From assembly GCA_000091205.1 (NCBI GenBank), contig AP006501.2: DNA of 64,000 bases. The stretch is one strand, 5' to 3'. The notes beneath the pieces were generated by a model. It had not been told where the DNA came from. It searched no databases and saw only the letters and a list, made by a program, of their open reading frames with translations. Shown piece by piece: positions 1,684 to 25,372 of this stretch (the stretch's first letter is position 1; each line of letters begins with the position of its first letter). The translations under genes were made by a program, and so were the position numbers. The stretch comes from Cyanidioschyzon merolae. Taxonomy: Eukaryota.

Positions 1684-2704
1684 TATCCACGTGTAGCTTT
1701 ACGTGCTATTTCGATACGCTTGACACGAGTTTCAGATAAGATATACGCACAACAGAGCGCGTGTGTTGGAGAATCCACGCGCAGTGGCGAGCGCACGTTT
1801 CACGTTCCCGGGAGCGTTCATGAATCGCTACGCACACAGGCGCCTCCCAGTGTTTTCGAACCTGTCGCTTGTTCGCGCTTTCTGTTCATCCAGGCACAGT
1901 TTGAGCCTGAGAGACTGCCCCACAAAGTTGGATTGCATCAGCTTATTAGGTCCCGTGTCTTCAACATCACATATCGTCTGATATTGATACAGTCTCGGTT
2001 GGTGAACTCCTCGCGTTTGCAGCCTCTGGTTGAACCTAACTTTGCAGGGACTCCTCGAAGTTGTGGCCTCGATGCCGTCCAAGTCTCGTTTGCATCCCGT
2101 TGGGCAAACGCTTTTCATCGTCTGTCTCCCCTCTTCTCCGTCTTGTTCTTCCTATTCGTTAATCGCTCTTCTTTATTCGATGGTCGGTGAGAGAGGATTT
2201 TTTCGGTTTTTTTCCAGCAGCCGGCGATGGCATCCCTGCGGGATCTCCGACTACCACGTCCATGCTTCTCCCCTGGATTCTTTTTCTTCAAATGAGCGCA
2301 CTTCAAATGCATCAGCTACAAACCGCGAACATGCATTCGATGACAAGCACCTGGGTGTGAAACACAACTGAGATGAAAGACCACAAGGAGTATGCTCCTC
2401 ATTTGGCAATAGAGAGCTTGCCTTGGAACGCGAGTTGTCCCCGCAACGCCGTTCGTATTACCTGCCGTGTTGGGCTTACTGTTGAACGAGGCTTTTGTGC
2501 ATTCGTTGCGCAACTCGCGAGTGAGCAAACGCTGTCTAGCTGCCCGCTGCTATGACGCTGGTTTGGAGCTCGCTCACTCGTGCGATCAAGCAAGACCTAT
2601 CTCGGGGGAGAGTCTTGTGCACCAGGTGCGTCTCTGTAGCGGCGGACGAACGCAGCTGTGGAGAGAGCCTCGCGTGCTCTCCGAGGCGGGGTACACTCTG
2701 GACT

Positions 2705-6981: not shown

Positions 6982-8463
6982 TCAGCACACACGAGATGAT
7001 GGTGCACTGCTTTTGGAAGGGCAAAGAACACAAGCAATGCGCTCGAATGCAACTTGTAGCGTTTGCGTATCCTCAACTGCCGAGAAGCAACATCTATACC
7101 ACCCGGGTTCAGGAGCATGGCAAACACGACCCGGATAGATCAACACTCGCGCTTCTCGAAAGAGTCGCTCAGCAAGTTCCAACTCCGCTTCCCAGGTCGC
7201 CTCGCGAAGAAATCTCTGCAAGCCAATCCATACGAAGAATCCAGCCTGGCTGGGATAGATGCGCACCTGCTCTGCCCCAAGACTGGTTTGAATCGCTTGA
7301 ACAGCCACCTGATACGCTTCCTCTAGTCGTCGTTGGTTTGCGACGAAAAACTTGTGCAACCATTGCTCGTCACTCAGCATTCGGCAAAGCACTGCCTGCG
7401 TATCCCGACTGGGCGACGAAAACAAACACGGTGCTCGAATCGCCTGCAACAGAGCCTGGTTCTCCGTAAAGAGAACCCCACATCGCATGCCACTCATACA
7501 GAGGTCCTTACTAAACGTCCATACGACATGCACATCGTTGCCGAGACCCTGGACGGCCAAAACGTCCGCTACGGAACGAAAACGCCCCGCATGGCTCTGG
7601 AAGACCGAGAGCGCGTACGCCTCGTCGCTCACCAGGTGCATGCCATGGGATCGACACCATTGAATGGAAAGCTCTAGTTCTTCTGTCGATAGAATATTGC
7701 CCGTTGGATTCCCGGGACTGTGCAGGAGCAACACTCGCGGTCGTTGCCCGCTCGCTCTACAGGTCCGGTCCGCAGTTTCAAGCGCATCCCTTGTCAGACG
7801 GTGGTGGTTATGGAGCGCTGTTTGTACAGGTACGGGTATGCACTTTGCACGGCAGCTCAGGTCAAAGTCAAATCCCGGATAATACGGTGCCGGAATCAAC
7901 ACGGCATCACCATCGTCACACAGGGCACTGAATACCAGGTCAAGTACAGCGCTTGCACCAACGGCACACAGGTAGTTATCGGGGTTGGCTGCACTTGCTG
8001 GGCCGCCTTTCGAAGCTGCAAATATATGCTCTCGAAAGAGTTGGCTAAGTGCCTTGCGAAAGCGTAACTCGCCGAACATGTAGTCGTACTGAAGGCACTC
8101 GTTGCGCGGCAATACGTCGCTGCGTTCCCGCTGAAACTGGGCTAAGACGGGTCCCGCACTGAGCGCGTTCTCGGCCACCAGCAGTGAGATATAACCATTA
8201 GGTTTTAATTGTGGATCGTATGCGTCCTGTTTCGCTGTAAAGGACCACTCAATCTGGCGTGGCGGTGCACGACTCGCAAGCGCCCTCCCCCGGTCTGAAA
8301 GCGTCTCTGCTGCGCTTTTCAGCACGCTACTCGTCTCTGGTTGTTGCATGCAGACACGTATACTTCGCTGTTGCTGCTGGGACGTAGCTGAACAGAGCAG
8401 CCGATCCCGACACTGAGCGCGAACGAACAAAGCTTCTCGGTAAACACCAGACTGGAGGAACAT
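6982..8463 (-). CDS. ACC-synthase-like class I/II PLP-dependent aminotransferase
   Basis: Motifs 'NGYISLLVAENALS', 'NPTGNILSTEELELSIQWCRSHGMHLVSDEAYALSVFQ' and 'SFSKDLCMSGMRCGVLFT' (Lys-containing PLP site) match aminotransferase class I/ACS-like proteins. ATG at 8461-8463. 493 aa. Confidence 0.8.
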   Translation of the reverse strand: MFLQSGVYREALFVRAQCRDRLLCSATSQQQQRSIRVCMQQPETSSVLKSAAETLSDRGRALASRAPPRQIEWSFTAKQDAYDPQLKPNGYISLLVAENALSAGPVLAQFQRERSDVLPRNECLQYDYMFGELRFRKALSQLFREHIFAASKGGPASAANPDNYLCAVGASAVLDLVFSALCDDGDAVLIPAPYYPGFDFDLSCRAKCIPVPVQTALHNHHRLTRDALETADRTCRASGQRPRVLLLHSPGNPTGNILSTEELELSIQWCRSHGMHLVSDEAYALSVFQSHAGRFRSVADVLAVQGLGNDVHVVWTFSKDLCMSGMRCGVLFTENQALLQAIRAPCLFSSPSRDTQAVLCRMLSDEQWLHKFFVANQRRLEEAYQVAVQAIQTSLGAEQVRIYPSQAGFFVWIGLQRFLREATWEAELELAERLFREARVLIYPGRVCHAPEPGWYRCCFSAVEDTQTLQVAFERIACVLCPSKSSAPSSRVC

Positions 8464-8561: not shown

Positions 8562-9256
8562 GGAACTTGGCGACTGAGACAAAGTCTTCAACGTAGAAGC
8601 CTCATGGTGCAAGGATCGGGTGTATAAAGGTACGAGATACTGCGAACTTGGCGACTGAGGCACAGTCTTCAACGTAGAAGCCTCATGGTGCAAGGATCGG
8701 GTGTATAGAGGTACGAGATACTGCGAACTTGGCGACTGAGGCACAGTCTTCAACGTAGAAGCCTCATGGTGCAAGGGTCGGGTGTATAGAGGTACGAGAT
8801 ACTGCGAACTTGGCGACTGAGGCACAGTCTTCAACGAAGAAGCCTCATGGTGCAAGGATCGGGTGTATAAAGGTACGAGATACTGCGAACTTGGCGACTG
8901 AGGCACAGTCTTCAACGAAGAAGCCTCATGGTGCAAGGATCGGGTGTATAAAGGTACGAGATACTGCGAACTTGGTGACTGAGACACAGTCTTCAACGAA
9001 GAAGCCTCATGGTGCAAGGATCGGGTGTATAAAGGTACGAGATACTGCGAACTTGGCGACTGAGACAAAGTCTTCAACGTAGAAGCCTCATGGTGCAAGG
9101 ATCGGGTGTATAGAGGTACGAGATACTGCGAACTTGGCGACTGAGGCACAGTCTTCAACGAAGAAGCCTCATGGTGCAAGGATCGGGTGTATAAAGGTAC
9201 GAGATACTGCGAACTTGGCGACTGAGACAAAGTCTTCAACGTAGAAGCCTCATGGT
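8562..9256. repeat. 81-bp minisatellite, ~8.6 near-identical tandem units
   Basis: Unit 'gtcttcaacgtagaagcctcatggtgcaaggatcgggtgtataaaggtacgagatactgcgaacttggcgactgaggcaca'. Copies differ at only a few positions (ataaagg/atagagg; gagacaaag/gaggcacag; acgtag/acgaag). It lies in the 5' flank of the ACS-like gene. It yields a 306-aa repetitive ORF (8319..9239, minus strand) in a frame that overlaps the ACS-like CDS. Confidence 0.9.
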
Positions 9257-9602: not shown

Positions 9603-10430
9603 TCAACTAGCACCAGATGTGTACGTTTCGCGCACAAGCCTCCAGGAGTTATGATCGAAAAACTTGCCGTACGTCAACAAAGCCAGTAAGGATGCAGAAA
9701 GCGTACTACCTGCTGTGATCATATAATACACAACGATTTGATAACGCGCTGCTGTGTCCGTGGAACCGTTACCGACAATCTGCCCCGTCATCATGCCTGG
9801 TAAAGAGACAAGGCCTACCGTCAGCATCGAGTTCACGACCGGAATCAGTGCCGAGCGCAAGGAGGCTCGAAGTGCCGGTGCGATCGCTTGTTTTGGACTG
9901 GCACCTATGCTGAGGAGTTCCTCGATCTCTTTCTCGTGCGAGGATACCTCGGACTGGAGTCGTTCGCCCAACAACGCTACTGTGTTCATGGCGTTCCCGA
10001 GAATCATACCGGAGAGCGGGATAAAGTAACGCGGCATCCAGAAAGGTTTCACTCCGATGACGGTCCAAGTTGTTTGCACGATCACGAAACCTGCACCACT
10101 GAGAAGCGAGACTAGCACGGCGACGAACATACCCGGTATTGGTCGGTGCATGCGCTGTGAAGCTGTCCAGGCAGCAACCAAAGTCATGATGCTTACTGCC
10201 AAGAACACAAGCAATGGTAGGTTTGCAGCGAAAATCCAGCGCAAGACGAGCCCTACGAGCAACAACTGGACTGCGGCACGAAGGGACGCCCAAACCATAT
10301 CCAGTTCGATGCCAATCTCAAACAGCCATATCGCCATAACTGACAGTAGCATGAAACCGTAAGCGACAGCAAGTTGACCAAGACTGACAGGCAGGGCGCC
10401 GGCCGTGTCGGCACTGCTCGTGGACTCCAT
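9603..10430 (-). CDS. UPF0014/FetB-type (YbbM; plant ALS3/STAR2-like) ABC transporter permease
   Basis: Multi-TM protein of ~275 aa with UPF0014 family character ('ALIPVVNSMLTVGLVSLPGMMTGQIVGNGS...ARYQIVVYYMITAGSTLS'). The ORF-track start at 10454 is GTG; the first ATG is at 10428-10430. Confidence 0.75.
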   Translation of the reverse strand: MESTSSADTAGALPVSLGQLAVAYGFMLLSVMAIWLFEIGIELDMVWASLRAAVQLLLVGLVLRWIFAANLPLLVFLAVSIMTLVAAWTASQRMHRPIPGMFVAVLVSLLSGAGFVIVQTTWTVIGVKPFWMPRYFIPLSGMILGNAMNTVALLGERLQSEVSSHEKEIEELLSIGASPKQAIAPALRASLRSALIPVVNSMLTVGLVSLPGMMTGQIVGNGSTDTAARYQIVVYYMITAGSTLSASLLALLTYGKFFDHNSWRLVRETYTSGAS

Positions 10431-10706
10431 GAATGGGCGACGGATGCAAAACACGAACGCTTCCGACCCCAGGTCTGAACAACGAAGTGAATGTCCAGGT
10501 CAGAGCGCGTTGACTGCCGCACGCCGTCGAACAAGGCAAGAATCCTCGACCAGGTACAAGTGCAGTCGTGCAGGCTCTCGTACGGCTTCTCAAGGCCCAG
10601 CAGCAGGAGCGCGCTGAGCTCTGGTGCTGTGCTCGTTCGTGCCGTGCGGCCTGCCTTCTCACCAAGACACCTTCGACTGTGAATGCTCGCTTCCCGATCT
10701 GCGGCT

Positions 10707-12503: not shown

Positions 12504-15500
12504 ATGCCCTCCAGGGGTGCGCGTTCGAAGAAGCCCGCAAAGAAGACCGCCTCAGCTGAGGAGGCAGCACAACGACTGCCAGAGCATCTCGCGGCAGGCA
12601 AGTTCACCTCACTGGCCGACATCACAAGTATCGTGCTGGGTGCTCGCTCGTGGCAGTCCGAGGCAGAGGCCGAGACGAGGCCCCTCACGACTACCGCGTC
12701 TACTGCAGAGCTTCAAAATTGGGATGAACACGCTGCGCTGGTTGCCCAACGACTCTTAAAACGCGATGAAAGTACAAAACTACGAGCGTTGCAGGAGCTC
12801 AGCACCCTCTTGCAGGCACTGGAACAAGCTTCCTCGGAAAGAATCGCAGACCAAGCAGCCTACGGGGCCCAGTACGGCGCTTTTCTCGGAAACTTTGCCA
12901 CTGCATTCGTGAAACTGACACTGGATCCGAGTGTACGCGTTCGAGCAGAAGCCGTCGCGCTGGCGGGGCTTGTCGTTCGTCTTTACGGAAAACGGTCAAT
13001 AGCGCTCCTGCCGGGGATGCTTCCGGCATGGGTTGGGTTGCTGGGCGATCCCTCGGCACAGGTCGCTGAAGCTGCAGCTCGTAGTTTCCAGGACGCGTTT
13101 CCCACTGAGGTGAAACGTCGACGAGCGCTGTTGTTGGTACCGCATGCACTGATCCACCACGCAACCGCGCAGGTTCAGAGCAGTCTAGCGGGAAACGTGC
13201 CAGAGACGTTGCGTCAATCCGCAGACAAGGCCGAAATGCCCCTTCTCCACGCGCTGGTGTGCGTGGCGTCCACCGCGGAGGCTTTGGCAACGACACTAGC
13301 GACAAAGACAACCTTGTCGCCAGCAGACGACTCGGAACTGGTTGCATTTCTGGTCCACTGGCTCCAGCACTGGGTATCGGAGGAAGGCGTGCAGACGCTT
13401 GCGGTACCGCTTTTCCGCCGCTACCGGCAATCGCTCCGCGTCCATGAGGCCTTCTGGCGACTAGCCATTATTTCAGTGGACCTTTTCGGAGAGCTTCGGC
13501 AGACCAGAGACGAGCACCAGGGGCATAGCTTGATCGCTGCATTGGCAAACGCTTGTCCAGACTGGGAAAGCAAGGCGTCGGACGGTTTTTCCTATCTCGT
13601 TTCACGACTCGCTTGGGATGAGCTGCACGCTTCCTGCCAAGAACAGGTCTGGATCCTCCTCCATCGCTATGTTGTGCGGATTGAGCCTTCCAGCAGCAGC
13701 CTTGCACGATCGATCTCTGCAAAGACGCTCACAAGCTGGCTTCTCGGCGAGTCGATAGCAGGGGGCCGGCGTCAGGCCTCTGCAGCCGAACGTATCCAGT
13801 CTGGTCGGGTTTTCCGGGGGCTGCTACCCTTCTTGCAAGCGCTACGAATCAAGTGGCTGACCAGCGACGCTGTGCGTTCCGATCCAGTCGAGAGCGCTTC
13901 CCGTCATCATTGGCTCGAGTCGTTCGAGGGTATGCTGCTCGATGAGCTCACCACTGCCTTGCTCTGGCGAGCGCCTAAAACAAAGTTTCCTCCAGCGCTT
14001 GTGGGGAGCGCTTACCTGGACTGGTGGCAAGCAGCGCTGGTCGCTTTCCTGGAGAGTGCGCTCTGGGTCCAGCAGCTATCCTCGAGACGAGAGCGCAGCG
14101 ATGATAGGACTGCTCTGCGCGCTCGATGCCGCGCTGCACTACAGCGGTACCTTCTTGCAGCGGAGGCGTTTCAGCGTGCACCTGAAGCGTCGCAATCCGT
14201 GGTGCAATTCGGTGGTAGACCAGCCGATGCATCATTGCTTCATGAACGCTTTTTCGATGTGCTTTTCTATGCGAGCGTGGACGCTTGTCGAAGCGACTTG
14301 GATGCAACGCGCTCCAACTGGCAAATCGTTGGTGAGGAGCTCGCCGCGGGGCTCGTCGTCATCGTCGTCATCGAACGAGCACCTGCCTGGTATGCGAAGG
14401 CGGTGGTCGCTGCTTGCGAACGTGCCGTGCAGGGAACCTCGTTCGCGACGCTCGAGTCAGACCAGCAGCCCCGGTGGTCACTTCTAGGCCTCGATCCTGG
14501 CGTCATTCGTACCTGGAGTGTAGAAATTATGGGAGGTGCGTTCTGCTGGGCACTGAATCGTTTCCGTCGACGAAAGATTGGCAACGGAAACGCACAACAT
14601 GACGATAATCACCAGCAGGTACATGGTACTCCAGCGGAAGCAGAGGTTGCAACCACGCTGCTCCTGTTGGCATGGAGTCAGCGCGCCCCGGCTTCGATGC
14701 TGGAACGTGCTTTGCAGTATCCAGATCCGATTCAGGGCCGCCATCGACTCAACGACTTTTTCCACGACGCTGTGTCGCTGCTGGAGCATCCATCAGCGGA
14801 AAACGAGCATGACGATGACGATGACGACAACGAGGAGGAGGCGGTGGCGGTGGCAGCGCTCCCTGCTGCTTACAGTCACCAGCTCGTAGCGGTGCTGGGT
14901 GCACTGGCTGCATGCAGTCACTCCTCTGAGGCGCTGAGCGGTCCATCGAGCGTCTTGAACGCGCGTTTAGAGGAGTGTCCTGGCGCGGGTCGCTGGCTCA
15001 TCGAACTTGCTCAAGCAGCACGTATCCGAGCAGCTTCAATAGAGCAAGGTGTTCCAGCTGGTCTCTGGACAGCGACGGTGTTTCCCCGTCACCTGGCTGA
15101 CCAAGTGGAGCACCTGCAGTGCTACTGCGACCAACTGGACCCCGCCCGCTACTCCTATTACCGCCGTTCGGAGACAGACGCTTGGCCTTCCGTTGGGCTC
15201 CTGCTGGAATACGCCGCCTGGCCCGAGGCCTGGCTCTGGTCAACGTCCACTGACTGGTCTACACTGAGGAGCAGCATGGATGCCAGCGTGTGTCGGGCGC
15301 TGCGTCTCGGACTCTGGGACTGGCCCCAACTGGCCTCCTTTCAGCAGGGTGTTCATTCAGCAGCTGCTCCATGGACCGCAGAAACACGAGCTTGGCTGTA
15401 CGTGAGAGCGCTCCTGGCATTAGAGCAGCACCAGAGCCAAGAAGCAAGCGACGGGCATGTGTTTGCGGACGTCCGACCGTCGGCAGCGCTGGAGCGTGAA

Positions 15501-18500
15501 ACCCTGGAAAGAGTCGTGCTCGACGCACTCGCGTGGCTCCTTGAGGATATGGAACGCGTTCTGCTCGCAGAGTCGTGTGAAACGCAAGCTCCGGACATGC
15601 TCGAGGCTGTTCAACGCTTCCAGCGCGTGCTGCTAGAGCTCGCCGCCACCTCGAAACGCCCCTGGCAAGCTCTCCTGTACGACATATTGTACAAGTGCTG
15701 GGTATCGGATGCAGAGGACTCGAAGGCAATAGCAGCACAGCCTGGAGAGCGCGTGATAGAACCAGCATGGCGACCATTGCAAAGACTAGAGGAGCAACAA
15801 CGACAACAACGCTGGCGTTGTTCGCTGCTCGAGTCGCTGACACCCTCGCTGGACGATGCAGCAAGTCCGCTTGATGCTACGTTGTGGCACCTCTACCTGC
15901 AGTTTCCATGGACGCGTTCCTGGGCAACAGCACGATTTATCGGCTGGCTGCAGCGAACGGATGCTGCGACTGCTGCGTCCGCACTCGACGTGGCGGCAGC
16001 GGTACTTGCGCGCCTCCTGGACCCCGAAGCGAGCACTGCAGCCTGCTGCGACACGATCGTAACCGAGTTGGCAAAAGCCCCGCTGTACGCACCAGCGACA
16101 CCGACAGCGTTTCAGGTGCCGCTCGAGCAAAGCGCTGAGCGTCAACCGACGATGCTCATGAGACTGCTGATATGGTCGTCACTGGTACGAGAGCGTTTCT
16201 GGATACGTCTCCAGACGGATGCTGCGTATTTTGGACGAAGCGTCACCGCGGCCTCTTTCACACGATGCACGATGGCTGCTCTGGAAACCGGTCCGGTTAC
16301 CGGCCTGCAGGCATCTGGAGCCGTGGGAGAGTTTGCGTTGGAGCTCCTTCGGTATGCGGCAGCGAGTCTGGCGCAAACGCTGCCCGTATGGGTCCAGAGC
16401 GTTCTGAATGACACCTCAGCTGAGCGAATGCGCAGCGCTACCGGGCTGCAGCACGAGCCGTCTGTCCAAGTGGCCCCACAGGATGTACCGAAAACACTGT
16501 GTGCTTCTATGGAAATTCTCGGGCATGCGGCTGCGATTCCCGCCTCCTACGAACATCGTGCGGATTTGTTGACGTACCTGCGTTCCGCACTGGAACTGCT
16601 CATTGAGGTGCCGTTCACGAACCTGATCACAAGCCTCGAGCGAGCGCCACAGCAAACGAGTGAGGAGTTTCATCGAGGCTCCTCATTCGTTGGCAAACAT
16701 GCAACGCCGGACGCCAACACGACAAGGCCAGCAGCATCGGCAACGAGCGTGCGTCGCGTTTCGGACGCTCCATCGACACCGTCGTCATCGTCGAGCGCAG
16801 CGGAGGACTCGAATCGCCAGGTACTCGCGGTCCTGTTTGAACGGCTCGTGCGTCCGAGTCTGGACGTTTTCGCTACCGACCTGGGCGAAGAACACTGGAC
16901 CTGGATCGGCGAGACTGCTACGCAGGCGCTGGTGACCTCGCTGGGCTGGCCAGTGTACGCGGCAGCGCTTCGGTGTCTGTACGCATGGCATGTGCGGCTC
17001 GTAGAGCGTGCCTCTTCGACCCTGTTATCGGAACAGATGGTCAGCAGTATTGGACAGGCCCTCTGGATGACTTGTTATCGATTGGCAGAGGCGTATCGTG
17101 ACTCGCTCGTCACCGAGGCGCCATGTTCACCGGTTGCGGAGCTGAACCTACCCGTTCAAGATGCGCTGGGCTATTTGATTTGCGTTTTCAGACCTGAACT
17201 TGAGCGACTGGCGCTTCGCAGCGAGGATTCCGCACCCCAGATGATGACCGCGTTACCGTGCTGGCGCGAAGCTCGTGACCGCTGGGTAACGACGCGTTTT
17301 GGTGTCAAGTGTGAGTCGTTGCTTTCATCGATGCTGGGCCGCTTCTGGTGTCTCACCTGGCTTCCGTATCTCGTTGCAAGCAAAAGCACCGCTGTCCGCA
17401 GTGCCGTCATGCAGTTGCTGGGCACCCTGTGGGATGCGCTGGAAGCCTGGCTCGCGACGTCGACACTGGAGGGTGCACAGGCGTCCCTGGGTACCGGGCA
17501 CGCAGGTACAGGTGCCTCTCCTGCGGATACACGTCCAGGCTCGATTCGTTTCGAGTCCGATCAGCGTGGAGCGGCCACAGCCCTGGGCAGACGACCTGCA
17601 GAGCCCGAGCCGATGCCCTGTAGCAGCACCAGCGCTACATACGCTACCGAGACAACGCCACTGGAATACTCTGCGGATCGACGGGGCACCCAGCTGGACG
17701 GCAGCGTCGAGCATCACGACCCGTTACGCACGGAGGCATCGGAGCTCTCCGTCGCCGTCAGCGACTTGGGCATTGCAGAGAATACCGTGCATTTGGAGGC
17801 ACTCAAGGGATTGGCAACGCTCCACGATGCCCTGATTCAGAGCTGCAGTGAGGCGCTGTTTGCCCTGACGGCGAGGTTTCCGTCGCTGGACCCGACACCA
17901 GAGGCCGCGTCATGGGAACCTCTGCAGACCTATTTTTGCGCTTGGCTGGTGCTGCTTCGGCTCCAGGTCACGGGCTCCTATCCAGAAGCGTCGCTGGTAA
18001 CACCGTTGGGGTCGCGGTTGCCGAACACGTTGCGAGAAGGTGCGCTTTGGACGCTTCTAGACGGACTCGGGCGTTGCTGGATCCGAGCGGCAGCTACGAT
18101 AACGACGCGAACACCCGAAAGCAGTCACTCCACGAGCGATGCAGAGGCTCAATGCTTCCGAGAGCAACTGGAAATGCTTCTGGCTGGTCTCACCGAGCAA
18201 CTGGTGCTCGCTACCTCGGATCCGCAGTGGCTGGCGAGGGAGATCTTCTGGGAGCCAACAGACTGGCGACCAGCGGCTCTCGGAGCCCGCCTCCTCTTCC
18301 TGACGCTACTCGTGCAACCGCTTCTTGCACAACGCTGGTTTACCGATCATGTTGCGGATCGCTCGCTTCTTCAGCCGCTGGAGCTGTTGAGCCGCACGCT
18401 GCTCACTGGACCGTTGATTGCCCGCGAACTCGAGGCTATTCGGCAGTATGCCGCGCATGTGCACCAGACCCAGCACCGGGAGAACGGCGAAACCGTTCCC

Positions 18501-19133
18501 AATGCATCCCCTTCCCATACGGGTGTGTTATCCGTTCAGGGTAGTCTTGCAGCACGAGAGATTCTGGTTCGGTACCACTTTGAAGAGGTCCAATTACCCG
18601 TGTGTCTCCGACTGGCCGATACGCATCCGTGGCGAGCGCCGGAGCTTGTGCTTGCGCCCGCTGAACGCTCCGTAGTCTCGTTGGCGGGCATCGAACGTGA
18701 AACACGCGCTCGATCAGAGCTCGAAGCTCGCTACCGAAGACTCTTTCTCCATATGACCAGAATTTTACAACACGGAGTGGATCGGCACTCTGCCGACGCC
18801 GGTACCCTACTGCTACAACTGGGCGCATCGGCAACGTCCTCGTCGACATCGACGACATCGACGCTTGGGACGGCGTCCTGTGTGCCTCGTCAGTACTTTG
18901 CACCGAGTGCCCTCGCCAGTGCGGTGGTGTACTGGCATCAGCGTTTGGTTTCCCTATTGCGTGACGCACCCGAGTGTCCGATCTGTTATCAGGTGCTGCA
19001 TTCACGAACAGGTCAGGTTTCGCGTGTGCGCTGTCCGACCTGTCGGTATCGATTCCATGCAGCTTGTCTGTATCGGTGGTTCAGTAGTGCTGCGCACGGT
19101 GCCACGTGTCCGTTGTGTCGGTCACCGTTCTAA
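12504..19133 (+). CDS. LTN1: E3 ubiquitin-protein ligase Listerin (Ltn1/RKR1), ribosome quality control
   Basis: 2209-aa single ORF. The N-terminal HEAT-like region and the length fit Listerin. The C-terminal RING 'CPICYQVLHSRTGQVSRVRCPTCRYRFHAACLYRWFSSAAHGATCPLCRSPF' closely matches the Listerin RING consensus. ATG at 12504. Confidence 0.9.
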   Translation: MPSRGARSKKPAKKTASAEEAAQRLPEHLAAGKFTSLADITSIVLGARSWQSEAEAETRPLTTTASTAELQNWDEHAALVAQRLLKRDESTKLRALQELSTLLQALEQASSERIADQAAYGAQYGAFLGNFATAFVKLTLDPSVRVRAEAVALAGLVVRLYGKRSIALLPGMLPAWVGLLGDPSAQVAEAAARSFQDAFPTEVKRRRALLLVPHALIHHATAQVQSSLAGNVPETLRQSADKAEMPLLHALVCVASTAEALATTLATKTTLSPADDSELVAFLVHWLQHWVSEEGVQTLAVPLFRRYRQSLRVHEAFWRLAIISVDLFGELRQTRDEHQGHSLIAALANACPDWESKASDGFSYLVSRLAWDELHASCQEQVWILLHRYVVRIEPSSSSLARSISAKTLTSWLLGESIAGGRRQASAAERIQSGRVFRGLLPFLQALRIKWLTSDAVRSDPVESASRHHWLESFEGMLLDELTTALLWRAPKTKFPPALVGSAYLDWWQAALVAFLESALWVQQLSSRRERSDDRTALRARCRAALQRYLLAAEAFQRAPEASQSVVQFGGRPADASLLHERFFDVLFYASVDACRSDLDATRSNWQIVGEELAAGLVVIVVIERAPAWYAKAVVAACERAVQGTSFATLESDQQPRWSLLGLDPGVIRTWSVEIMGGAFCWALNRFRRRKIGNGNAQHDDNHQQVHGTPAEAEVATTLLLLAWSQRAPASMLERALQYPDPIQGRHRLNDFFHDAVSLLEHPSAENEHDDDDDDNEEEAVAVAALPAAYSHQLVAVLGALAACSHSSEALSGPSSVLNARLEECPGAGRWLIELAQAARIRAASIEQGVPAGLWTATVFPRHLADQVEHLQCYCDQLDPARYSYYRRSETDAWPSVGLLLEYAAWPEAWLWSTSTDWSTLRSSMDASVCRALRLGLWDWPQLASFQQGVHSAAAPWTAETRAWLYVRALLALEQHQSQEASDGHVFADVRPSAALERETLERVVLDALAWLLEDMERVLLAESCETQAPDMLEAVQRFQRVLLELAATSKRPWQALLYDILYKCWVSDAEDSKAIAAQPGERVIEPAWRPLQRLEEQQRQQRWRCSLLESLTPSLDDAASPLDATLWHLYLQFPWTRSWATARFIGWLQRTDAATAASALDVAAAVLARLLDPEASTAACCDTIVTELAKAPLYAPATPTAFQVPLEQSAERQPTMLMRLLIWSSLVRERFWIRLQTDAAYFGRSVTAASFTRCTMAALETGPVTGLQASGAVGEFALELLRYAAASLAQTLPVWVQSVLNDTSAERMRSATGLQHEPSVQVAPQDVPKTLCASMEILGHAAAIPASYEHRADLLTYLRSALELLIEVPFTNLITSLERAPQQTSEEFHRGSSFVGKHATPDANTTRPAASATSVRRVSDAPSTPSSSSSAAEDSNRQVLAVLFERLVRPSLDVFATDLGEEHWTWIGETATQALVTSLGWPVYAAALRCLYAWHVRLVERASSTLLSEQMVSSIGQALWMTCYRLAEAYRDSLVTEAPCSPVAELNLPVQDALGYLICVFRPELERLALRSEDSAPQMMTALPCWREARDRWVTTRFGVKCESLLSSMLGRFWCLTWLPYLVASKSTAVRSAVMQLLGTLWDALEAWLATSTLEGAQASLGTGHAGTGASPADTRPGSIRFESDQRGAATALGRRPAEPEPMPCSSTSATYATETTPLEYSADRRGTQLDGSVEHHDPLRTEASELSVAVSDLGIAENTVHLEALKGLATLHDALIQSCSEALFALTARFPSLDPTPEAASWEPLQTYFCAWLVLLRLQVTGSYPEASLVTPLGSRLPNTLREGALWTLLDGLGRCWIRAAATITTRTPESSHSTSDAEAQCFREQLEMLLAGLTEQLVLATSDPQWLAREIFWEPTDWRPAALGARLLFLTLLVQPLLAQRWFTDHVADRSLLQPLELLSRTLLTGPLIARELEAIRQYAAHVHQTQHRENGETVPNASPSHTGVLSVQGSLAAREILVRYHFEEVQLPVCLRLADTHPWRAPELVLAPAERSVVSLAGIERETRARSELEARYRRLFLHMTRILQHGVDRHSADAGTLLLQLGASATSSSTSTTSTLGTASCVPRQYFAPSALASAVVYWHQRLVSLLRDAPECPICYQVLHSRTGQVSRVRCPTCRYRFHAACLYRWFSSAAHGATCPLCRSPF

Positions 19134-19238: not shown

Positions 19239-21491
19239 TCATCGCATTCGCGAGGCACTGGTGGAGAAAAGTTGACGCGCCAGGTCCGCCGAGAACGATG
19301 ACGACGATGGTGGTGGTGGTGGTGGTAGCGGCGATGGCGATGGCGACGATGATGATGATGATGATGATCGACGCAGTTCGTGTGCATCCAGCAACTCGGT
19401 GTCGGTGAGCAGCACCGAGGAGGCCGCATCCGCTACCGCCTCCATTGTGGCATGATCACTTGGACTGGTGCTCTCCGCGATGCCGGCAACGCGACCCGAT
19501 AATGATGGCGATAAAGACGACCGGATGTGATGATGGTTATTGGTGCTGTTGTTGCTATTGGTGCTGCTCATCTCGGATGCCATGTGCCGTCGATGGGTTG
19601 TCATAGCGTGTTCCGATGGTGCACGCCTTGCATCCCCGCTCACAGCGTCGGCAAGCTGGTCGTTGAACTGCATCGCTAGCGTCGACGCCTGCGAGCGATG
19701 ATTCATGGTTGACTGTTGTTGCAGTTGCTGTTGTTGCTGTAGTTGGTGCTGTCGTCGTCGCTTGCGCGCACAGAGACGGCAGTGATTGCCCCAATCACAG
19801 GTGCCTTGTCGTTGCATCATACGGCTGTGACGTTTGCGACAGTTGCCGCATACCTGTGTCGCGCAGCAAGCTTGACAGGTCCGATGTAGTTCTAAAGCAT
19901 CCGCGCTAGCGCGACTTCGCAGCGACTGGGAAGCTGAGCGTCGATCGAGTGCCCCCGACGAGGGCGAGTCAACGACAACCGCCTCGGGATCAGCCTCGCT
20001 CGTGGATCGATCCGCGTGCGGTTGGCTCCGACGCGTTCTCCTCGCAGTCGTTAGAAGCAAACCGTGATCGCTGAGGCCTTGCTCTGTGAGTACTCCGGCG
20101 GCCGCCTGGAATGCGGCATTTCTGGCACCGGCATCCAGGTTGGCTTGTCGACTAGCAGCGTCGCCTCCGAGCGCTGGTGTCTCCCACGGCGACGGCAGCG
20201 AGCTCCGCTGGCGAGCGCGTTGGCGCTGTCGACGAGTGCAGAGGCGACAGGCGTCGCCCCATTGGCATCGTCCATCAGGGGCATGTTTCATCATGCGATG
20301 ATGCCGTTGTCGACACGCCGGGCACACCGGTTTGTTCAGTCCGGGATCACTGCACTTGGGGCAGCGGATATGTCGCTCCAGGGGTGTCGTGCCTGTCGAC
20401 GGACCCAGCTGCCCTGCGCCGTCGTGCGCCACATACGGCGGAATATCATCCTGATCCCAGTTCAAGGCTTGGCTCTGTAGCGCCAGGGTGCTATGCTCGC
20501 CATCCTGGCCGGTTGGTCGTGCGCCCGACAAATAGCCTCGAAAGCTGGTACGGTCGCGTTCGCTGAGCAGGAGCATACCGCCACCAGTGGCGCCAGTACC
20601 CGTTCCAGTACCAGTTTCAGTACCCGTTCCAGTACCAGTTCCGATTCCGGTGCCGCGCTCGGACTCTGGATCCCTGAGCGGAGCAAAGAGCTTTGCTTGA
20701 GCGAGTTCATCATCTGTTTGCAGATGCACATTCTCGGGGATGTCTTCGGTGCCGGATTCTATCGGATTCGGCAGCCGCTCAGCCGGTATCAATACATCTC
20801 GGGCGGGGCGAAGCGCCGGTAGCACTCCTATTTTCACCGCCAAGTCCTGGGCGAAAGCCCGCGACGCGGATATCGGCGGCAGCGTCGGTGGCTCCATGGG
20901 CGACACCGAGGCCGCAGATACAACGCCGCACTCGGCACTGCCAGTGCCTTCGAGCCAGCCCTCAAAAATCTGCCGCTCTGGACTCTGCTTGTTTGGTAAA
21001 TCGGAGAGCATCGCATTCGCTGCCGTCACTGGGTTTCCATCGGCGCGAGTTGCGGACCCTGCACTGAAAGTGCGCCCAGCATCACGACGTACACCCAATG
21101 CAGTGCTTGCCGCTGTTGCAGTCGTTGAGGTCGGCGTATCCGGATCGTAGCGGGCGAAGTCGACGACGGCAAACAGGTAGTGGCTGGTGTCGGTGCTACG
21201 ACCCAGTGGACTAGGCGGTGGGCGCGGCTCGCTCTCCGCGAGTCGCTGGCGCGTCCGGCGGCCGATTCCTTCGCCCAGAGAGGAGTCTCCGGGTGACCCA
21301 TCCCTTGTTCCAAACGTCTCTGCAACGTGATCTGGAAAGTTATCGCTATTTACTGCGGAGTCGTCCCCGCCAAGACCCCAGTAGGCGTCCGACACCGCCA
21401 GATTACCTTCGTCGTCCACGTGCTCCGTCTGTGCACGCGAAGAAGCCGCAGCACTTCTCTTCGTCTGCCGCTCTCCTCGTCGCGGTGCCAT
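19239..21491 (-). CDS. Low-complexity protein with two copies of an unusual Cys-rich (C4HC3-like) motif and microsatellite-encoded tracts
   Basis: Contains 'CPKCSDPGLNKPVCPACRQRHHRMMKHAPDGRCQWGDACRLC' and 'CQACCATQVCGNCRKRHSRMMQRQGTCDWGNHCRLC'. Also (GT)n 'GTGIGTGTGTGTETGTGTGTG', polyQ, polyS and polyP tracts. The ORF-track start at 21572 is GTG; the first ATG is at 21489-21491. Confidence 0.45.
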   Translation of the reverse strand: MAPRRGERQTKRSAAASSRAQTEHVDDEGNLAVSDAYWGLGGDDSAVNSDNFPDHVAETFGTRDGSPGDSSLGEGIGRRTRQRLAESEPRPPPSPLGRSTDTSHYLFAVVDFARYDPDTPTSTTATAASTALGVRRDAGRTFSAGSATRADGNPVTAANAMLSDLPNKQSPERQIFEGWLEGTGSAECGVVSAASVSPMEPPTLPPISASRAFAQDLAVKIGVLPALRPARDVLIPAERLPNPIESGTEDIPENVHLQTDDELAQAKLFAPLRDPESERGTGIGTGTGTGTETGTGTGTGATGGGMLLLSERDRTSFRGYLSGARPTGQDGEHSTLALQSQALNWDQDDIPPYVAHDGAGQLGPSTGTTPLERHIRCPKCSDPGLNKPVCPACRQRHHRMMKHAPDGRCQWGDACRLCTRRQRQRARQRSSLPSPWETPALGGDAASRQANLDAGARNAAFQAAAGVLTEQGLSDHGLLLTTARRTRRSQPHADRSTSEADPEAVVVDSPSSGALDRRSASQSLRSRASADALELHRTCQACCATQVCGNCRKRHSRMMQRQGTCDWGNHCRLCARKRRRQHQLQQQQQLQQQSTMNHRSQASTLAMQFNDQLADAVSGDARRAPSEHAMTTHRRHMASEMSSTNSNNSTNNHHHIRSSLSPSLSGRVAGIAESTSPSDHATMEAVADAASSVLLTDTELLDAHELRRSSSSSSSSPSPSPLPPPPPPSSSSFSADLARQLFSTSASRMR
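19305..19371. repeat. (GGT)n(GGCGAT)n(GAT)n trinucleotide microsatellite inside the C-terminal coding region of the 19239..21491 gene
   Basis: 'gatggtggtggtggtggtggtagcggcgatggcgatggcgacgatgatgatgatgatgatgatc'. It encodes polySer/Pro in the minus-strand frame and generates the spurious His-rich ORF 19145..19429. Confidence 0.9.
20595..20655. repeat. Imperfect hexanucleotide repeat (GTACCA/GTTCCA-like) encoding a (Gly-Thr)n tract
   Basis: 'agtacccgttccagtaccagtttcagtacccgttccagtaccagttccgattccggtgcc'. Confidence 0.8.
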
Positions 21492-21816: not shown

Positions 21817-22740
21817 GGTGACGACTGGAGCGATCATTCGCTGCCGTCGCTGCTGCAGCTGATTTTTTACCTCTGACGAGGGGTTTCTATTGTATTTGGA
21901 ATCGCGTATTGCGGGATGGATATTACGATTTATGTAAGTGTTCATCAGGATGCTGAACTTCAAGTTCCATGACAGATACTTCCTTGCGGATGTACTGGTC
22001 GTTTCGGACGTTCTATCATGAGTCTAGTGCCTGCAGTACGCATACGCGTTAGCGCCGAGACCGCTGGAGCGGATATTTCATAGAGCCCGAACGGCTTTGC
22101 CATACGACTGGGGCGGGGGGTGTTGGCCCAAGGCATGATTCACTGGACATCGGGGTCGGAGCGTAGAATCATTCTGGGAGCGTGCAAGCTGTGCAGACGC
22201 ACTGCCTGTGGCAGCAGCGCGAAGCGATATACAAGGAGTACACTGCGACCAGGGCGATGCCCAGACGCTGGCTAACTGCTCGAAATCCCAGAATAAGCGG
22301 CGTTTCTGACGAGTTGCCCAGGTCTCAATAAAGCTCCTGCAACTGGGGGCCTGAAGCACAAGCCTGGCAGGCTCGTGCGACTCGCGGGACCTTACGTCCA
22401 GAAGGTAAACTCTCGACGATACGGAAACCTTTGCCCCCTTTTATCGTTTGTCGTAGAGGGGCAAAGAAAATGTTATCTCGCTACTAGTTTGTAACTAGTC
22501 TCTGTCCTTTTGGGTATATCATGCGCTCGATACGCGCACCTCCATATCTGGCAGTCACAAGACCTGACGTGTATCGCGCCGATGAAGGGAAACGCGATCC
22601 TGATCATGAGCGTGTAGCTCCAACGTACAGGACGCATTTGCGTTGAGGTCATGCGAAAGTATAGTATTTCATCCCAGATGAGTTTCGACCCTCAATGGAG
22701 TGTATTCAAGTGATTTTTCGCGGTTTATAGTAGTAGCGTT

Positions 22741-23140
22741 CAAAGAGCATTCTTTTCCAAAAACAAAAAATCCAAGGGACAGGTATCGACCTGGATGTTG
22801 GGAATCCTTAAGGGCCATCATCGTCGAATTCGACGAAGAATAACCGAAGAAGAAATCCTCTTTTCGTCGACTATCGAGCGAACATGAGCGAACGATGCGG
22901 ACGAAGAAGACCGAGAATGGATGTAGGCGAGAAAGTGTGTGCCCGACGAGACGATGACGAGACTGTAGTGGCACAGAGGGCGCGGGTTCTGGGAATCCTT
23001 GGAAAATTGCGTTCAGCCAGAGGCAATAAACGTATGGTGCTCGTGAACCGAGACTTTAACGCCGTCATCAATATCAGACGATGGGCGGTGCTGAAGACGA
23101 GACACGAGGAGCTTACGCGATCTAGCTTTGTGGAGTAGCC
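22741..23140 (+). pseudogene. Degenerate TnpB/Fanzor-like (IS200/IS605 OrfB-type RuvC) remnant, copy 1
   Basis: The in-frame translation ends '...KRMVLVNRDFNAVINIRRWAVL', matching the TnpB/Fanzor/Cas12 RuvC-III signature (D/N)RDxNAAxNI(x)RR. About 35 codons upstream in the same frame is 'KIQGTGIDLDVGNP' (RuvC-I 'GIDLG'-like), followed by a stop, which suggests an internally deleted relic. It is homologous to a second copy at ~42430-42970. Confidence 0.4.
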
Positions 23141-23204
23141 TCTCATGGGCGATGTGTACAGGGAGAAGCTGAAACCGATAGCAGGTCGCCTGTGTAGATA
23201 GGCT

Positions 23205-23257: not shown

Positions 23258-24119
23258 TGGTGCGGAAAGGCCGTTCTGTCTGCGCTAATGCGAGACGCGT
23301 GGTGGTTACCTGGGCCCTGCTTTTCCCTTATAGGCTATTACGTGAGCCCTTGGGCACCTTCAGCACAGAAACGTTTCCAGTCTGCAACGTGGCGGGATAA
23401 GCGAGTCGAGCTCGGAGCGCTCCGTGTACAATCACGCTGTCTCCTTTCGCAAGTTACGATGCGTACCTGTTTCGCGGCTGGATTTTTGGCACCAAAAGCG
23501 CTGTAGGTACCGGGTTCAGGTACAGTTCCATCTCGCCAGATGCTGTTGGTGTCGAAGGATCGGCTTCAGGAGGAGGTAAGCGTCCGGCATTGCGTACCAA
23601 GAGGTCTGCGACGAGGCGTTCATCGCGCAGTTCGTCGCATCAGCAGGCGGGCACTGCTTGTAATCGACTGCCTGAGCGCTTCATTGAGACGATTCATAAA
23701 AGCCATCGTCGCCTTCAGATATCACTCTGAGAACTGTTTGGACGCTGCAGAACGATTCTCGGGATGCGCGAAACATGCCCAGAGTCGGCACCTGGCATGG
23801 GGTAGGGTCCTGGTCTGTTGTGGTGTAGGATCCTTAAATCTAACCAGGTTTCTGGCGATGCGCATCCGCTTCTGATGACCACGAAAGAGGCCTCGTTCGC
23901 TTCACTAGCGCATGTGTGTGTTCGGCAAGTCCCAGTCAAAATGCCCAACAGGTATAGAGGCTTGCTCATTCCAAAGGAACAGCGGTTATCGAGTCTACAG
24001 TGGGCGCTCGCGCCACCGCGGGCTCATTCTCACACGCTCACCGCAGAGGTTCGTTTCCTAACGAGCAACTCGCGCGTCTGCAGGCGCATTCTCCAACGAG
24101 ATGCCGACCCTGAAAACGT

Positions 24120-24345
24120 ATATTTCGCTGTATTCCAAGTCTGGAATCATCCGAGGCACTAGATGCGAAGGCAGCCGGTTTCGGGAAGTGCTCGTCCCAG
24201 TCTGATACCGGAAATCCCGCTGTATTCCAGGTCTGGAATCATCCGAGGCACTAGATGCGAAGGCATCCGGTTTCGGGAAGTGGTAGTGCCTCCATCCGAT
24301 CGTATATCTCGTTGTACCCCAGGTCTGTAATCATCCAGATCACGA
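24120..24345. repeat. ~94-bp tandem repeat, 2 full units plus a partial third
   Basis: 'gctgtattccaagtctggaatcatccgaggcactagatgcgaaggcagccggtttcgggaagtg' recurs at 24221 with 2-3 mismatches. A degenerate third unit follows ('gttgtaccccaggtctgtaatcatccagatcac'). Confidence 0.85.
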
Positions 24346-24562
24346 CATACATAGGCATTATGTGTCGGGTACTCGACATTCCGCCTTGCTCGTGCTTCGC
24401 GCTGGCATACGATACAAATGAAGCACAGCCGCAGTTGCGCAGTCGCGGTTGCCAGGCCCGCGTTGCGTACGGCTGCGATGCCCGCCGGAGGACACAGCCT
24501 TGTGCTACGCTGGGCTCGTGCGGCGTTGCGCCCGTATACTGTTGGGCTCCGTTGGAGACGGT

Positions 24563-25372
24563 ATGTCGGTTAGGTGGAAGCGGCTTCAAGCACAGCTCGG
24601 TTTCCTGTCTAGTGGACTGCGCATGCAGCATACAATTTCGGAAAGCAAAGCACAAGGTGAACGAGCGCAAACTATAGCAGAACGACTGTGCAAGGTACGG
24701 GAGCGAATTCAAGTCGCTGCGCTTGCCGCAAAACGCGACCCTGCACGGGTTCGCCTAGTTGCTGTGAGCAAAACGCACGCTGCCGGTACCGTGCGGGAGG
24801 CGTATGACGCAGGTCAACGCCACTTTGGGGAGAACTACGTCCAGGAGCTGGTTGAGAAAGCGGAACAGCTACCGACAGACATAAACTGGCACTTTATCGG
24901 ACACCTGCAGAGCAATAAAGTGAGGACGCTGTTGAGTGTCCCGAACCTCTGGTGCGTTGAGACTGTCGATCGACCCAAGCTTGCGAATACACTGAACCGC
25001 CTCATGGACGAGTTGCGTCCCGACGGAGGTCCGATACCTGTGATGGTGCAGGTGAATGTCAGCGGGGAAGCGAGCAAGGCCGGGATAGAACCCGCTGCCG
25101 CTCCCGAACTCGTCGAGCACATCCTGCAGGCTTGCCCGCGGCTGAAGCTCCTCGGTTTAATGACGATAGGCTCGCCGGACCCGAGTCCAGAGCCTGTGGC
25201 GTTCCAAAGGCTCTCGCACTTACGAGACCAAATACAGGACCGGTTTAGGTTTCAAGAGCCGCTCGAGCTCAGCATGGGTATGAGTGATGACTTTGAGGCG
25301 GCGGTACGCATGGGTAGCACCAATGTACGCATCGGATCCACTATATTCGGGCCGCGTGTCTATCCGCAATGA
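24563..25372 (+). CDS. PLPBP: Pyridoxal phosphate homeostasis protein (YggS/PROSC/PLPBP family, alanine-racemase-N fold)
   Basis: 'RLVAVSKTHAAGTVREAYDAGQRHFGENYVQELVEKA...WHFIGHLQSNKVRTL...VETVDRPKLA...LLGLMTIG...LSMGMSDDFEAAVRMGSTNVRIGSTIFG' is the canonical YggS/PROSC motif series, including the PLP-binding Lys in 'VSKT'. In-frame ATGs are at 24563 and 24623; the ORF also extends upstream to 24449. Confidence 0.85.
   Translation: MSVRWKRLQAQLGFLSSGLRMQHTISESKAQGERAQTIAERLCKVRERIQVAALAAKRDPARVRLVAVSKTHAAGTVREAYDAGQRHFGENYVQELVEKAEQLPTDINWHFIGHLQSNKVRTLLSVPNLWCVETVDRPKLANTLNRLMDELRPDGGPIPVMVQVNVSGEASKAGIEPAAAPELVEHILQACPRLKLLGLMTIGSPDPSPEPVAFQRLSHLRDQIQDRFRFQEPLELSMGMSDDFEAAVRMGSTNVRIGSTIFGPRVYPQ

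Follow-up and report, generated by a model that had tools for sequence, protein, structure and literature searches.

A duplicated Cys/His module in the Cyanidioschyzon merolae protein CMS403C as a putative two-zinc, nucleic-acid-binding domain

CMS403C, identified by exact-sequence look-up as a nuclear gene of the hot-spring red alga Cyanidioschyzon merolae 10D, occupies the minus strand of the 64-kb stretch of DNA analyzed in this study (the window), and the coordinates of its features are collected in Table 1. The open reading frame spans 777 codons if an upstream GTG is used and encodes 750 residues from the ATG at 21491; this ATG is the true start because the N termini of the orthologues read MAPRRGER or MPRGSR. 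The product is rich in Ser, Ala, Arg, Gly, Thr, and Pro (60% disorder-promoting residues; mean Kyte-Doolittle hydropathy, -0.72), and disorder is predicted for most of its length. Fifteen of its 16 Cys residues are inside two modules that make up 84 of the 750 residues (binomial P = 8e-14). Neither tRNAs nor Rfam families were detected in the window or in the intergenic region upstream of the gene, and scanning the 3' junction for bacterial promoters and terminators, which is not relevant to a eukaryote, returned nothing. Neither "CMS403C" nor "CMS403" appears in the main texts of the searched literature, which hold no functional data on the gene, and the searched supplements of C. merolae omics papers contain no expression or proteome record of it.

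Table 1. Features of CMS403C, with positions in the window
Feature	Position	Strand	Residues, sequence, or description	Basis
CDS CMS403C	19239..21491	-	750 aa, "hypothetical protein", XP_005539005.1 / BAM82969.1	ORF list, exact-sequence look-up
Gly-Thr repeat	20577..20654	-	GTGIGTGTGTGTETGTGTGTGATGGG, 6/12/24-nt tandem repeat	TRF
Conserved lead-in to module 1	20361..20468	-	aa 342-377, ALNWDQDDIPPYVAH...TPLERHIRC	Full-length alignment
Module 1 core	20238..20372	-	aa 374-418, HIRCPKCSDPGLNKPVCPACRQRHHRMMKHAPDGRCQWGDACRLC	Translation; invariant residues across 8 copies
Arg-rich tail of module 1	20205..20237	-	aa 419-429, TRRQRQRARQR	Translation, AF2 helix
Module 2 core	19770..19886	-	aa 536-574, HRTCQACCATQVCGNCRKRHSRMMQRQGTCDWGNHCRLC	Translation
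Basic tail of module 2	19743..19769	-	aa 575-583, ARKRRRQHQ	Translation, AF2
PolyQ tract	19713..19751	-	Immediately after the basic tail of module 2	TRF
Ser/Pro C-terminal tract	19296..19367	-	Microsatellite-encoded	TRF

The repeat spans reported by TRF are 20593-20642 for the GT-type repeat, 19708-19752 for polyQ, and 19308-19368 for the Ser/Pro tract. The original prediction described everything outside the modules as low complexity; these repeats are real, but the description is overstated, as short nonrepetitive blocks (MAPRRGER, SHYL..VVD, TDDELA.AK.F, ALNWD..IP.Y.AH, and LSDHGLL.T) are conserved in the three closer species in the full-length alignment. In the same alignment, the "PY..H" and "PLE.H" motifs of the lead-in to module 1 are invariant in 4/4 species.

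On the minus strand, positions 20235-20363 and 19767-19877 translate as previously described, into CPKCSDPGLNKPVCPACRQRHHRMMKHAPDGRCQWGDACRLCT and CQACCATQVCGNCRKRHSRMMQRQGTCDWGNHCRLCA, respectively; the peptide strings quoted in that earlier description extend two codons (RR and RK) beyond these intervals. The two copies in CMS403C are 44% identical (BLASTP E = 1e-11) and are separated by a linker of approximately 117 residues, and there is no third copy in any frame of the window. Orthologues are found in Cyanidiococcus yangmingshanensis (KAK4531027.1), one further relative (P0003), and Cyanidium caldarium (KAK4535794.1), and both copies are present in each of the four species, which bears out the claim that the motif is duplicated. 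The pattern H-x2-C-x2-C-x(5-9)-C-x2-C-R-x-R-H-x-R-M-x(7-9)-C-x-W-G-x2-C-R-x-C is invariant in all eight copies, with 16 invariant residues that include 7 Cys, 2 His, 4 Arg, Met, Trp, and Gly, and the ligand spacing is C-x2-C-x(5-9)-C-x2-C-x3-H-x(9-11)-C-x5-C-x2-C. Seven Cys and one His had been recognized before; the invariant His three residues ahead of the first Cys (H-x2-C-x2-C), which is the ninth candidate ligand of each module, had been missed, as had a local CCCH-like core. The Cys and His residues are invariant and regularly spaced, as expected of a generic zinc module, yet such ligands come in multiples of four and there are nine rather than eight; the ninth may be either a spare or a sign of a different stoichiometry. 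The net charge of the module constructs is +4 to +12, the highest value being that of the 61-aa module 1 construct.

Two independent AF2 runs, one per copy, gave the same layout, with pLDDT values of 71.8 for module 1 and 79.6 for module 2; the models were built on only 6-8 sequences and are of moderate confidence. The N-terminal half consists of a short helix that carries the first His, a knuckle, and a helix that has the second CxxC at its start and bears RxRHxRM, whereas the C-terminal half makes a turn at WG and then forms a helix from the last CxxC through the basic tail. The predicted helix of module 1 covers PACRQRHHRMMKH, and in the 61-aa construct a helix at residues 47-60 runs from the last CxxC into the Arg-rich tail. 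In module 2, the helices cover GNCRKRHSRMMQRQ and RLCARKRRRQHQLQ. In each predicted metal site, ligands from a knuckle or loop are combined with a CxxC at a helix N terminus, an arrangement common to treble-clef and zinc-knuckle-plus-helix fingers in general (RING, PHD, nuclear-receptor, and GATA-type). No fold neighbor of the module was found among solved structures.

An exhaustive HMMER profile search of 1.84 billion representative proteins returned no relatives of the module beyond Cyanidioschyzon, Cyanidiococcus, and Cyanidium, i.e., none outside one algal lineage. The only nonrepeat outsider in this search is a multi-CCCH protein, and the matches P0023-P0025 were rejected as repeat-protein artefacts. 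A pattern scan of JGI metagenomes found only contigs that are 99.3-99.6% identical to the window over approximately 12.2 kb (L002 and L003), and these have 5-8 differences within CMS403C, which is too close for dN/dS. The first copies of the different species are closer to one another than to the second copies and share indels that the second copies lack; the duplication is therefore older than the Cyanidium split.

In the three closer species, the module codons have a pN of 0.05-0.08 at a saturated pS of 0.78-0.79, as the strict conservation claimed for the motif would lead one to expect, whereas pN is 0.28-0.45 outside the modules. Amino-acid identity in these species is 86-89% in the modules and 34-54% elsewhere in the protein, and in the comparison with Cd. 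caldarium the corresponding values are 55-60% and 19-22%. The modules are under strong protein-level constraint and purifying selection, and they are the only deeply conserved parts of a largely disordered protein. The Cd. caldarium NIES-551 gene g1947, whose top hit is CMS403C, is transcribed in diploid and haploid cells at a TPM of 116-127 (PMC13353863, Supplementary Data Set 9), and this Plant Cell 2026 dataset is the only place in the searched supplements where CMS403C is listed, as the top hit of g1947. CMS403C is a real, expressed gene that is restricted to Cyanidioschyzon, Cyanidiococcus, and Cyanidium. The original prediction was to be given up if the motif clearly matched an existing family or if the ORF was not expressed or translated; we found no clear family match, and purifying selection acts on the conserved ORF, which has a transcribed orthologue in Cd. 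caldarium.

We consider it an even chance that CMS403C, a lineage-specific protein that is for the most part disordered, contains two previously undescribed two-zinc modules, each followed by an Arg-rich helix and with a putative role in nucleic-acid binding. The module itself is probably a new small metal-stabilized nucleic-acid-binding domain, although we infer its binding of metal and nucleic acid, the pairing of its ligands, and the localization of the protein only from sequence patterns and models. The Cd. caldarium orthologue is classed by iTAK as neither a transcription factor nor a regulator, which means only that it is without known domains (PMC13353863). Each module would have two zinc sites arranged sequentially, with one ion at each. 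For site 1 (C4), the ligands would come from the N-terminal CxxC knuckle and from the CxxC capping the first long helix. Site 2 (HC3) would combine the His one turn further along this helix with the Cys of G-x-C-x-W-G and the CxxC capping the second helix, which would run on as the Arg-rich tail. A nucleic-acid-binding surface would be provided by the basic helix together with the invariant Trp and the four invariant Arg residues, and the two modules may act as independent binding units tethered by the long linker. The basic tails probably double as nuclear-localization signals; that of module 2 matches a K-R-R-R monopartite pattern and may be read as NLS-like.

No Pfam family matches the module above its gathering score, which agrees with the earlier description of the motif as unclassified. 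The best subthreshold match is zf-CCCH_4 (PF18044), which scores 15.0-15.5 bits (cut-off, 24.6; E of about 0.015-0.02) over profile positions 4-18 of 22, and an hhalign comparison of the 8 module copies with 6 real CCCH fingers aligned 13 columns (36-48) with a probability of 81% and a pairwise E of 1.3e-5. The G-x-C-x-aromatic-G-x2-C-x-hydrophobic core of CCCH fingers is present in the module, which has G-x-C-x-[aromatic]-G-x2-C-[RK]-[LF] in common with the TIS11d/TTP fingers, and the invariant Trp aligns with the aromatic residue of C-x-[YF]-G. In the TIS11d-RNA complexes, this aromatic residue stacks on RNA bases. RNA is slightly favored over DNA as the candidate ligand because the G-x-C-x-W-G-x2-C-R-L segment mimics this base-stacking core and the tails are similar to Arg-rich motifs that bind RNA. 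Similar to CMS403C, the TIS11d/TTP proteins carry two fingers amid disordered, basic sequence; however, their linker is 18 aa in TTP-type proteins. Membership in the CCCH family was rejected on the Pfam score and on the spacing, which is H-x(9-11)-C-x5-C-x2-C in the module and C-x(7-8)-C-x5-C-x3-H in CCCH fingers, so that the two have just the central C-x5-C in common; the last ligand of the module is a Cys at +3 instead of a His at +4, a His 9-11 residues upstream is found where CCCH has a Cys 7-8 residues upstream, and the module bears an extra front half, H-x2-C-x2-C-x(5-9)-C-x2-C. The resemblance may be convergence, because it extends over 13 columns only and leaves out both the first Cys and the final His of a CCCH finger.

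The further step of regarding the module as a truly new two-metal fold (C4 + HC3 + a ninth His) that defines a Cyanidiales-specific family of sequence-specific RNA or DNA regulators is a tentative one, to which we assign somewhat less than even chances. If true, it would be an invention within a lineage of otherwise extreme genome reduction, and it is open to direct testing now that C. merolae, Cyanidiococcus, and Cyanidium have all become genetically tractable. In a model eukaryote with a gene count below 5,000, such as C. merolae, any conserved gene without a known function stands out as a gap. A nucleic-acid-binding zinc module would give an organism with very few regulators a lineage-specific family of them and would extend the zinc-finger catalogue by one fold. 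Such a result would be useful yet unsurprising, since small orphan zinc modules turn up regularly, and it has no bearing on any long-standing open question.

The modules might instead be zinc-stabilized protein-protein or ubiquitin/histone-related domains, that is, divergent C4HC3 cross-braces of the PHD/RING type that do not bind nucleic acids, as the earlier label "C4HC3-like" implied. This is unlikely. The ligand count of the core as first described is indeed C4-H-C3, and there are weak subthreshold matches to zf-C3HC4_3 (E = 0.23-0.5) and Prok-RING_4 (E = 0.055). The PHD, RING, and RING-CH families were nevertheless rejected, as the ligand spacing is not canonical and no Pfam match was obtained: RING-type models reach E values of only 0.05-0.5, and no PHD model appears even with the threshold relaxed to E <= 10. 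The AlphaFold models are consistent with each other and lend no support to the cross-brace that the label suggests, as their secondary structure looks like a knuckle and two CxxC-capped helices, and there was no fold match. Other subthreshold matches, namely, NMD3 (E = 0.03), Zn_ribbon, and Myb_DNA-bind_8, were set aside together with Prok-RING_4 as ordinary CxxC or basic-residue cross-talk. CMS403C always adjoins the gene for the RING E3 Listerin, in the order SurE..DUF423..Ala_racemase_N..[gene]-><-Listerin..ABC_tran that is common to all orthologues, but this adjacency may carry no meaning in such compact syntenic genomes.

It is quite unlikely that the Cys/His clusters hold something other than structural zinc, such as an Fe-S cluster, a cluster of three metals in which all nine ligands take part, or thiols that sense redox state or heavy metals. 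The nine invariant ligand-type residues exceed by one the number required for two tetrahedral Zn sites, Fe-S clusters have precedent in some CCCH and CDGSH proteins, and the habitat would fit, as these algae inhabit metal-rich acid springs (PMC12112623). On the other hand, CxxC pairs at helix N termini beside a knuckle, as seen in the AF2 models, are the classic arrangement of structural zinc, and pure metal sensing leaves the invariant basic and aromatic residues among the ligands unexplained. Moreover, each protein has only two modules and has no metallothionein-like Cys density elsewhere.

A still more specific assignment, according to which the module is a highly diverged DM domain or plant SBP domain with a C-terminal recognition helix and CMS403C is a transcription factor, is very improbable. 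The DM domain is a two-metal module of approximately 45 residues (CCHC + HCCC, intertwined, with a C-terminal recognition helix), and the CMS403C module, for which two metals are also predicted, has in common with it the C-x2-C-R-x-(x)-H start, the ...C-x-W-...-C-x2-C segment, and the basic α-helical tail that follows. In hhalign, C21, C24, C40, W42, C46, and C49 are colinear with Cys and Trp positions of an authentic DM domain across 33 columns (pairwise E = 0.005). However, the hhalign probability is 6.9%, PF00751 gives no Pfam match (DMRT1 control, 4.8e-24), and the module lacks the second His and one Cys of the DM ligand set. For SBP (PF03110), inspection of the sequence shows that the C-x2-C-x3-H-x(9-11)-C subpattern equals the second site, whereas there is no Pfam match (SPL4 control, 1e-33) and the hhalign probability is 0.4%. 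The Cd. caldarium orthologue is classed by iTAK as neither a transcription factor nor a regulator, which means only that it is without known domains (PMC13353863).

That the modules have no function and are merely a random run of Cys residues within an ORF that is spurious or untranslated, or an artefact generated by repeats, has practically no credibility: the annotation is only "hypothetical" and the ORF is largely microsatellite-like, but this explanation is refuted by syntenic conservation in four species, by modules that are nearly unchanged at saturated synonymous sites, by the transcribed orthologue, by the clustering of Cys residues, and by population length variants that are all in frame. 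Among environmental C. merolae-like populations (variants P0001 and P0004-P0017), the length of the Gly-Thr repeat varies, always in frame. The Ser/Pro tract, which is missing from the orthologues, also varies in length in frame among environmental variants.

The CMS403C protein of Cyanidioschyzon merolae 10D, which was identified by an exact-sequence look-up, is already in the databases, where it is labeled "hypothetical protein"; what is new is the module that it carries twice, which is absent from Pfam. The modules are best described as a family of small, probably metal-stabilized Cys/His modules that has not been described before and is confined to Cyanidioschyzon, Cyanidiococcus, and Cyanidium. 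Fifteen of the 16 cysteines of CMS403C are concentrated in 84 residues (aa 374-418 and 536-574; binomial probability, 8e-14), and the two copies share 44% identity (BLASTP E=1e-11). Translations of the window agree with the two motif stretches quoted in the original prediction, and the tandem repeats that it named as encoding the GT-type, polyQ, and Ser/Pro tracts were found at the DNA level; the Cys/His motif copies stand, but an invariant upstream histidine had been overlooked in the ligand set. Across the aligned modules of four orthologues, the pattern H-x2-C-x2-C-x(5-9)-C-x2-C-R-x-R-H-x-R-M-x(7-9)-C-x-W-G-x2-C-R-x-C, which holds seven Cys and two His, is invariant in all eight copies. Scanning all frames of the window gave no further copy of the motif. 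A basic tail (TRRQRQRARQR or ARKRRRQHQ) follows each CMS403C module, and the net charge of module constructs ranges from +4 to +12. In the full-length alignment, columns invariant in all four species are essentially confined to the modules and to "PY..H" and "PLE.H" just upstream. Disorder-promoting residues make up 60% of CMS403C.

The AF2 models of copies 1 and 2 (pLDDT, 71.8 and 79.6, respectively) agree in layout. The N-terminal half takes the form of a short helix with the first His, a knuckle, and a long helix that starts from the second CxxC and bears R-x-R-H-x-R-M; in the C-terminal half, a turn at W-G leads to a second long helix that runs from the last CxxC through the basic tail. 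The module has two CxxC pairs at helix N termini, a knuckle CxxC before them, and a His one turn into helix 1, an arrangement typical of structural zinc sites. Two sequential sites are proposed. Site 1 (C4) would use the knuckle CxxC together with the CxxC at the start of helix 1, and site 2 (HC3) would combine the helix 1 His with the Cys in G-x-C-x-W-G and the CxxC at the start of helix 2. This would leave the invariant upstream His spare; its role may be to cap the fold, to contact a ligand, or to alter the stoichiometry. On account of this ninth ligand and of the habitat, an Fe-S or three-metal cluster, or redox or metal sensing, is retained as a less probable rival. Stabilization of the module by metal is likely.

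The module was originally called unclassified, and database searches bear this out: no Pfam model passed its threshold, whether for the whole protein, for each module copy, or for the orthologues, and a profile search of PDB sequences gave no match below E=0.47. The best Pfam match was zf-CCCH_4 (~15 bits versus a cut-off of 24.6); the RING, zinc-ribbon, and NMD3 matches were scattered noise (E 0.03-3). The module resembles CCCH fingers in GxCxWGxxCRL (GxCx[YF]GxxCRF in the fingers), and when all eight copies were compared with six genuine CCCH fingers, hhalign aligned 13 columns with a probability of 81%, although the match ends short of the first and last CCCH ligands. The aromatic residue of CCCH fingers stacks on bases, and the invariant Trp of the module aligns with it; this alignment, together with four invariant Arg residues and the Arg-rich helix, suggests nucleic-acid binding, which we consider slightly more probable than its absence. 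RNA is slightly favored over DNA as the putative partner, and the basic tails probably double as nuclear-localization signals. A very diverged DM- or SBP-type DNA-binding domain is an improbable rival: when these candidates were tested with Pfam-verified control sequences, the Cys and Trp positions of the DM domain were co-linear with the module but without statistical support (hhalign probability, 6.9%) and the ligand sets differed, and the SBP domain gave a probability of 0.4%. A PHD/RING-like interaction module is disfavored by the spacing and the charge and by the lack of any fold match. Because a poorly conserved linker of ~117 residues lies between them, the two modules would function independently of each other while tethered within a largely disordered protein, whose remaining short conserved blocks are candidates for partner binding; we give this overall explanation even chances.

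Beyond C. merolae, the clusters returned by a full-length search were two in number: that of Cyanidiococcus yangmingshanensis (KAK4531027.1, 47% identity) and that of the metagenomic orthologue P0003 (42%). A HMMER profile of six module copies from these three proteins, run against all 1.84 billion representative proteins, regained the known clusters and added a single true homologue, P0022 (E=1.4e-26), which is Cyanidium caldarium KAK4535794.1; no match from Galdieria, other red algae, or other organisms was found at E<=1e-3. Of the four other profile matches, one was a multi-CCCH protein and the rest were repeat artefacts. In JGI metagenomes, a pattern scan picked up C. merolae-like contigs only. 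P0003 is of cyanidialean origin and lies on a 676-kb metagenome contig (L004/L005; JGI 3300051397, SRR18192416); outside the modules, it is 54% identical to the Cyanidiococcus protein and 34% to that of C. merolae. The gene order is the same in all four cases (SurE, DUF423, Ala_racemase_N, and the module gene, convergent with Listerin, followed by an ABC transporter), and these genes are therefore positional orthologues. The copy 1s of all species share two insertions, of 4 and 2 residues, that the copy 2s lack, and they are closer to one another than to the copy 2s; the duplication therefore took place before Cyanidium diverged from the other two genera.

We hold with near certainty, on three lines of evidence, that CMS403C is a real gene under constraint, and a non-functional ORF is refuted. 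Nei-Gojobori counts on codon alignments of C. merolae, Cyanidiococcus, and P0003 gave a pN of 0.05-0.08 and a saturated pS of ~0.78-0.79 in the modules and a pN of 0.28-0.45 outside them; conservation thus acts at the protein level. Environmental C. merolae-like variants (765-774 aa, counted from the GTG start) differ in how long the GT and Ser/Pro repeats are, always in frame, and carry a few substitutions, of which a single one is inside a module (P to S at a variable loop position). Both tracts are entirely absent from the orthologues of the other genera. In Cd. caldarium NIES-551, gene g1947 has CMS403C as its top match and the orthologues of CMS402C and CMS406C on either side. Its expression is 116-127 TPM in diploid and haploid cells alike (logFC 0.28), and it lies outside the TF, TR, and kinase classes of iTAK (PMC13353863, Plant Cell 2026, Supplementary Data Set 9). 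A CMS403C record for C. merolae itself was not found in the searchable supplements, and the main text of the searched literature does not mention it. The original reading of an unclassified, functional, and possibly nucleic-acid-binding module holds for the constraint and the lack of classification; metal and nucleic-acid binding we infer. Orphan zinc modules are common, and nothing in the finding overturns expectations; it is solid and directly testable in a tractable model.

Features of the window around CMS403C
Feature	Position	Strand	Remarks
Dispersed element	1908-2381	-	
Aminotransferase gene	6982-8463	-	
81-bp tandem repeat	8563-9256		8.6 copies, 96% identity; between aminotransferase and UPF0014 genes
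UPF0014 gene	9603-10454	-	
Listerin (Ltn1) RING E3	12504-19133	+	2209 aa; Ltn1 N-terminal domain, UBC-like region, C-terminal RING-H2
CMS403C	19239-21491	-	750 aa; XP_005539005.1 / BAM82969.1 / UniProt M1VC22
Ser/Pro tract	19296-19367		Within CMS403C; microsatellite-encoded, length-polymorphic in environmental C. merolae-like populations
Gly-Thr tract	20577-20654		As for Ser/Pro tract
Dispersed element	22664-23145	+	
92-bp tandem repeat	24116-24336		2.4 copies, 82% identity; just upstream of Ala_racemase_N/YggS-type gene
Ala_racemase_N/YggS-type gene	24449-25372		Upstream of CMS403C

The 64-kb window has a GC content of 51-61%, with long intron-free ORFs on both strands. CMS403C starts at the ATG at 21491 (orthologue N termini, MAPRRGER or MPRGSR), and the upstream GTG start of the ORF is an extension by metagenome gene callers. 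The stop codons of the convergent CMS403C and Listerin genes are 105 bp apart in C. merolae; in Cyanidiococcus, P0003, and Cyanidium caldarium the two genes are likewise paired tail to tail, only 7-78 bp apart, which is probably plain conserved synteny of compact genomes. The intergenic region upstream of CMS403C is unusually long (2.9 kb) and contains one copy of a decayed dispersed element, of which the window has two (65.7% identical at the nucleotide level over 492 nt). Both copies bear stops and frameshifts and gave no Pfam match; their conceptual translations end in "...GNKRMVLVNRDFNAVINIRRWAVLKTR" and "...GCKREEFTNRDCINIRRYVMLKTR", which we take to resemble the RuvC-III "RDxNAAxNI" tail of TnpB/Fanzor-type nucleases. 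The 81-bp repeat, possibly a minisatellite, is spanned by a putative minus-strand ORF with a TTG start, which would encode 27-aa repeats (SQYLVPLYTRSLHHEAS...).
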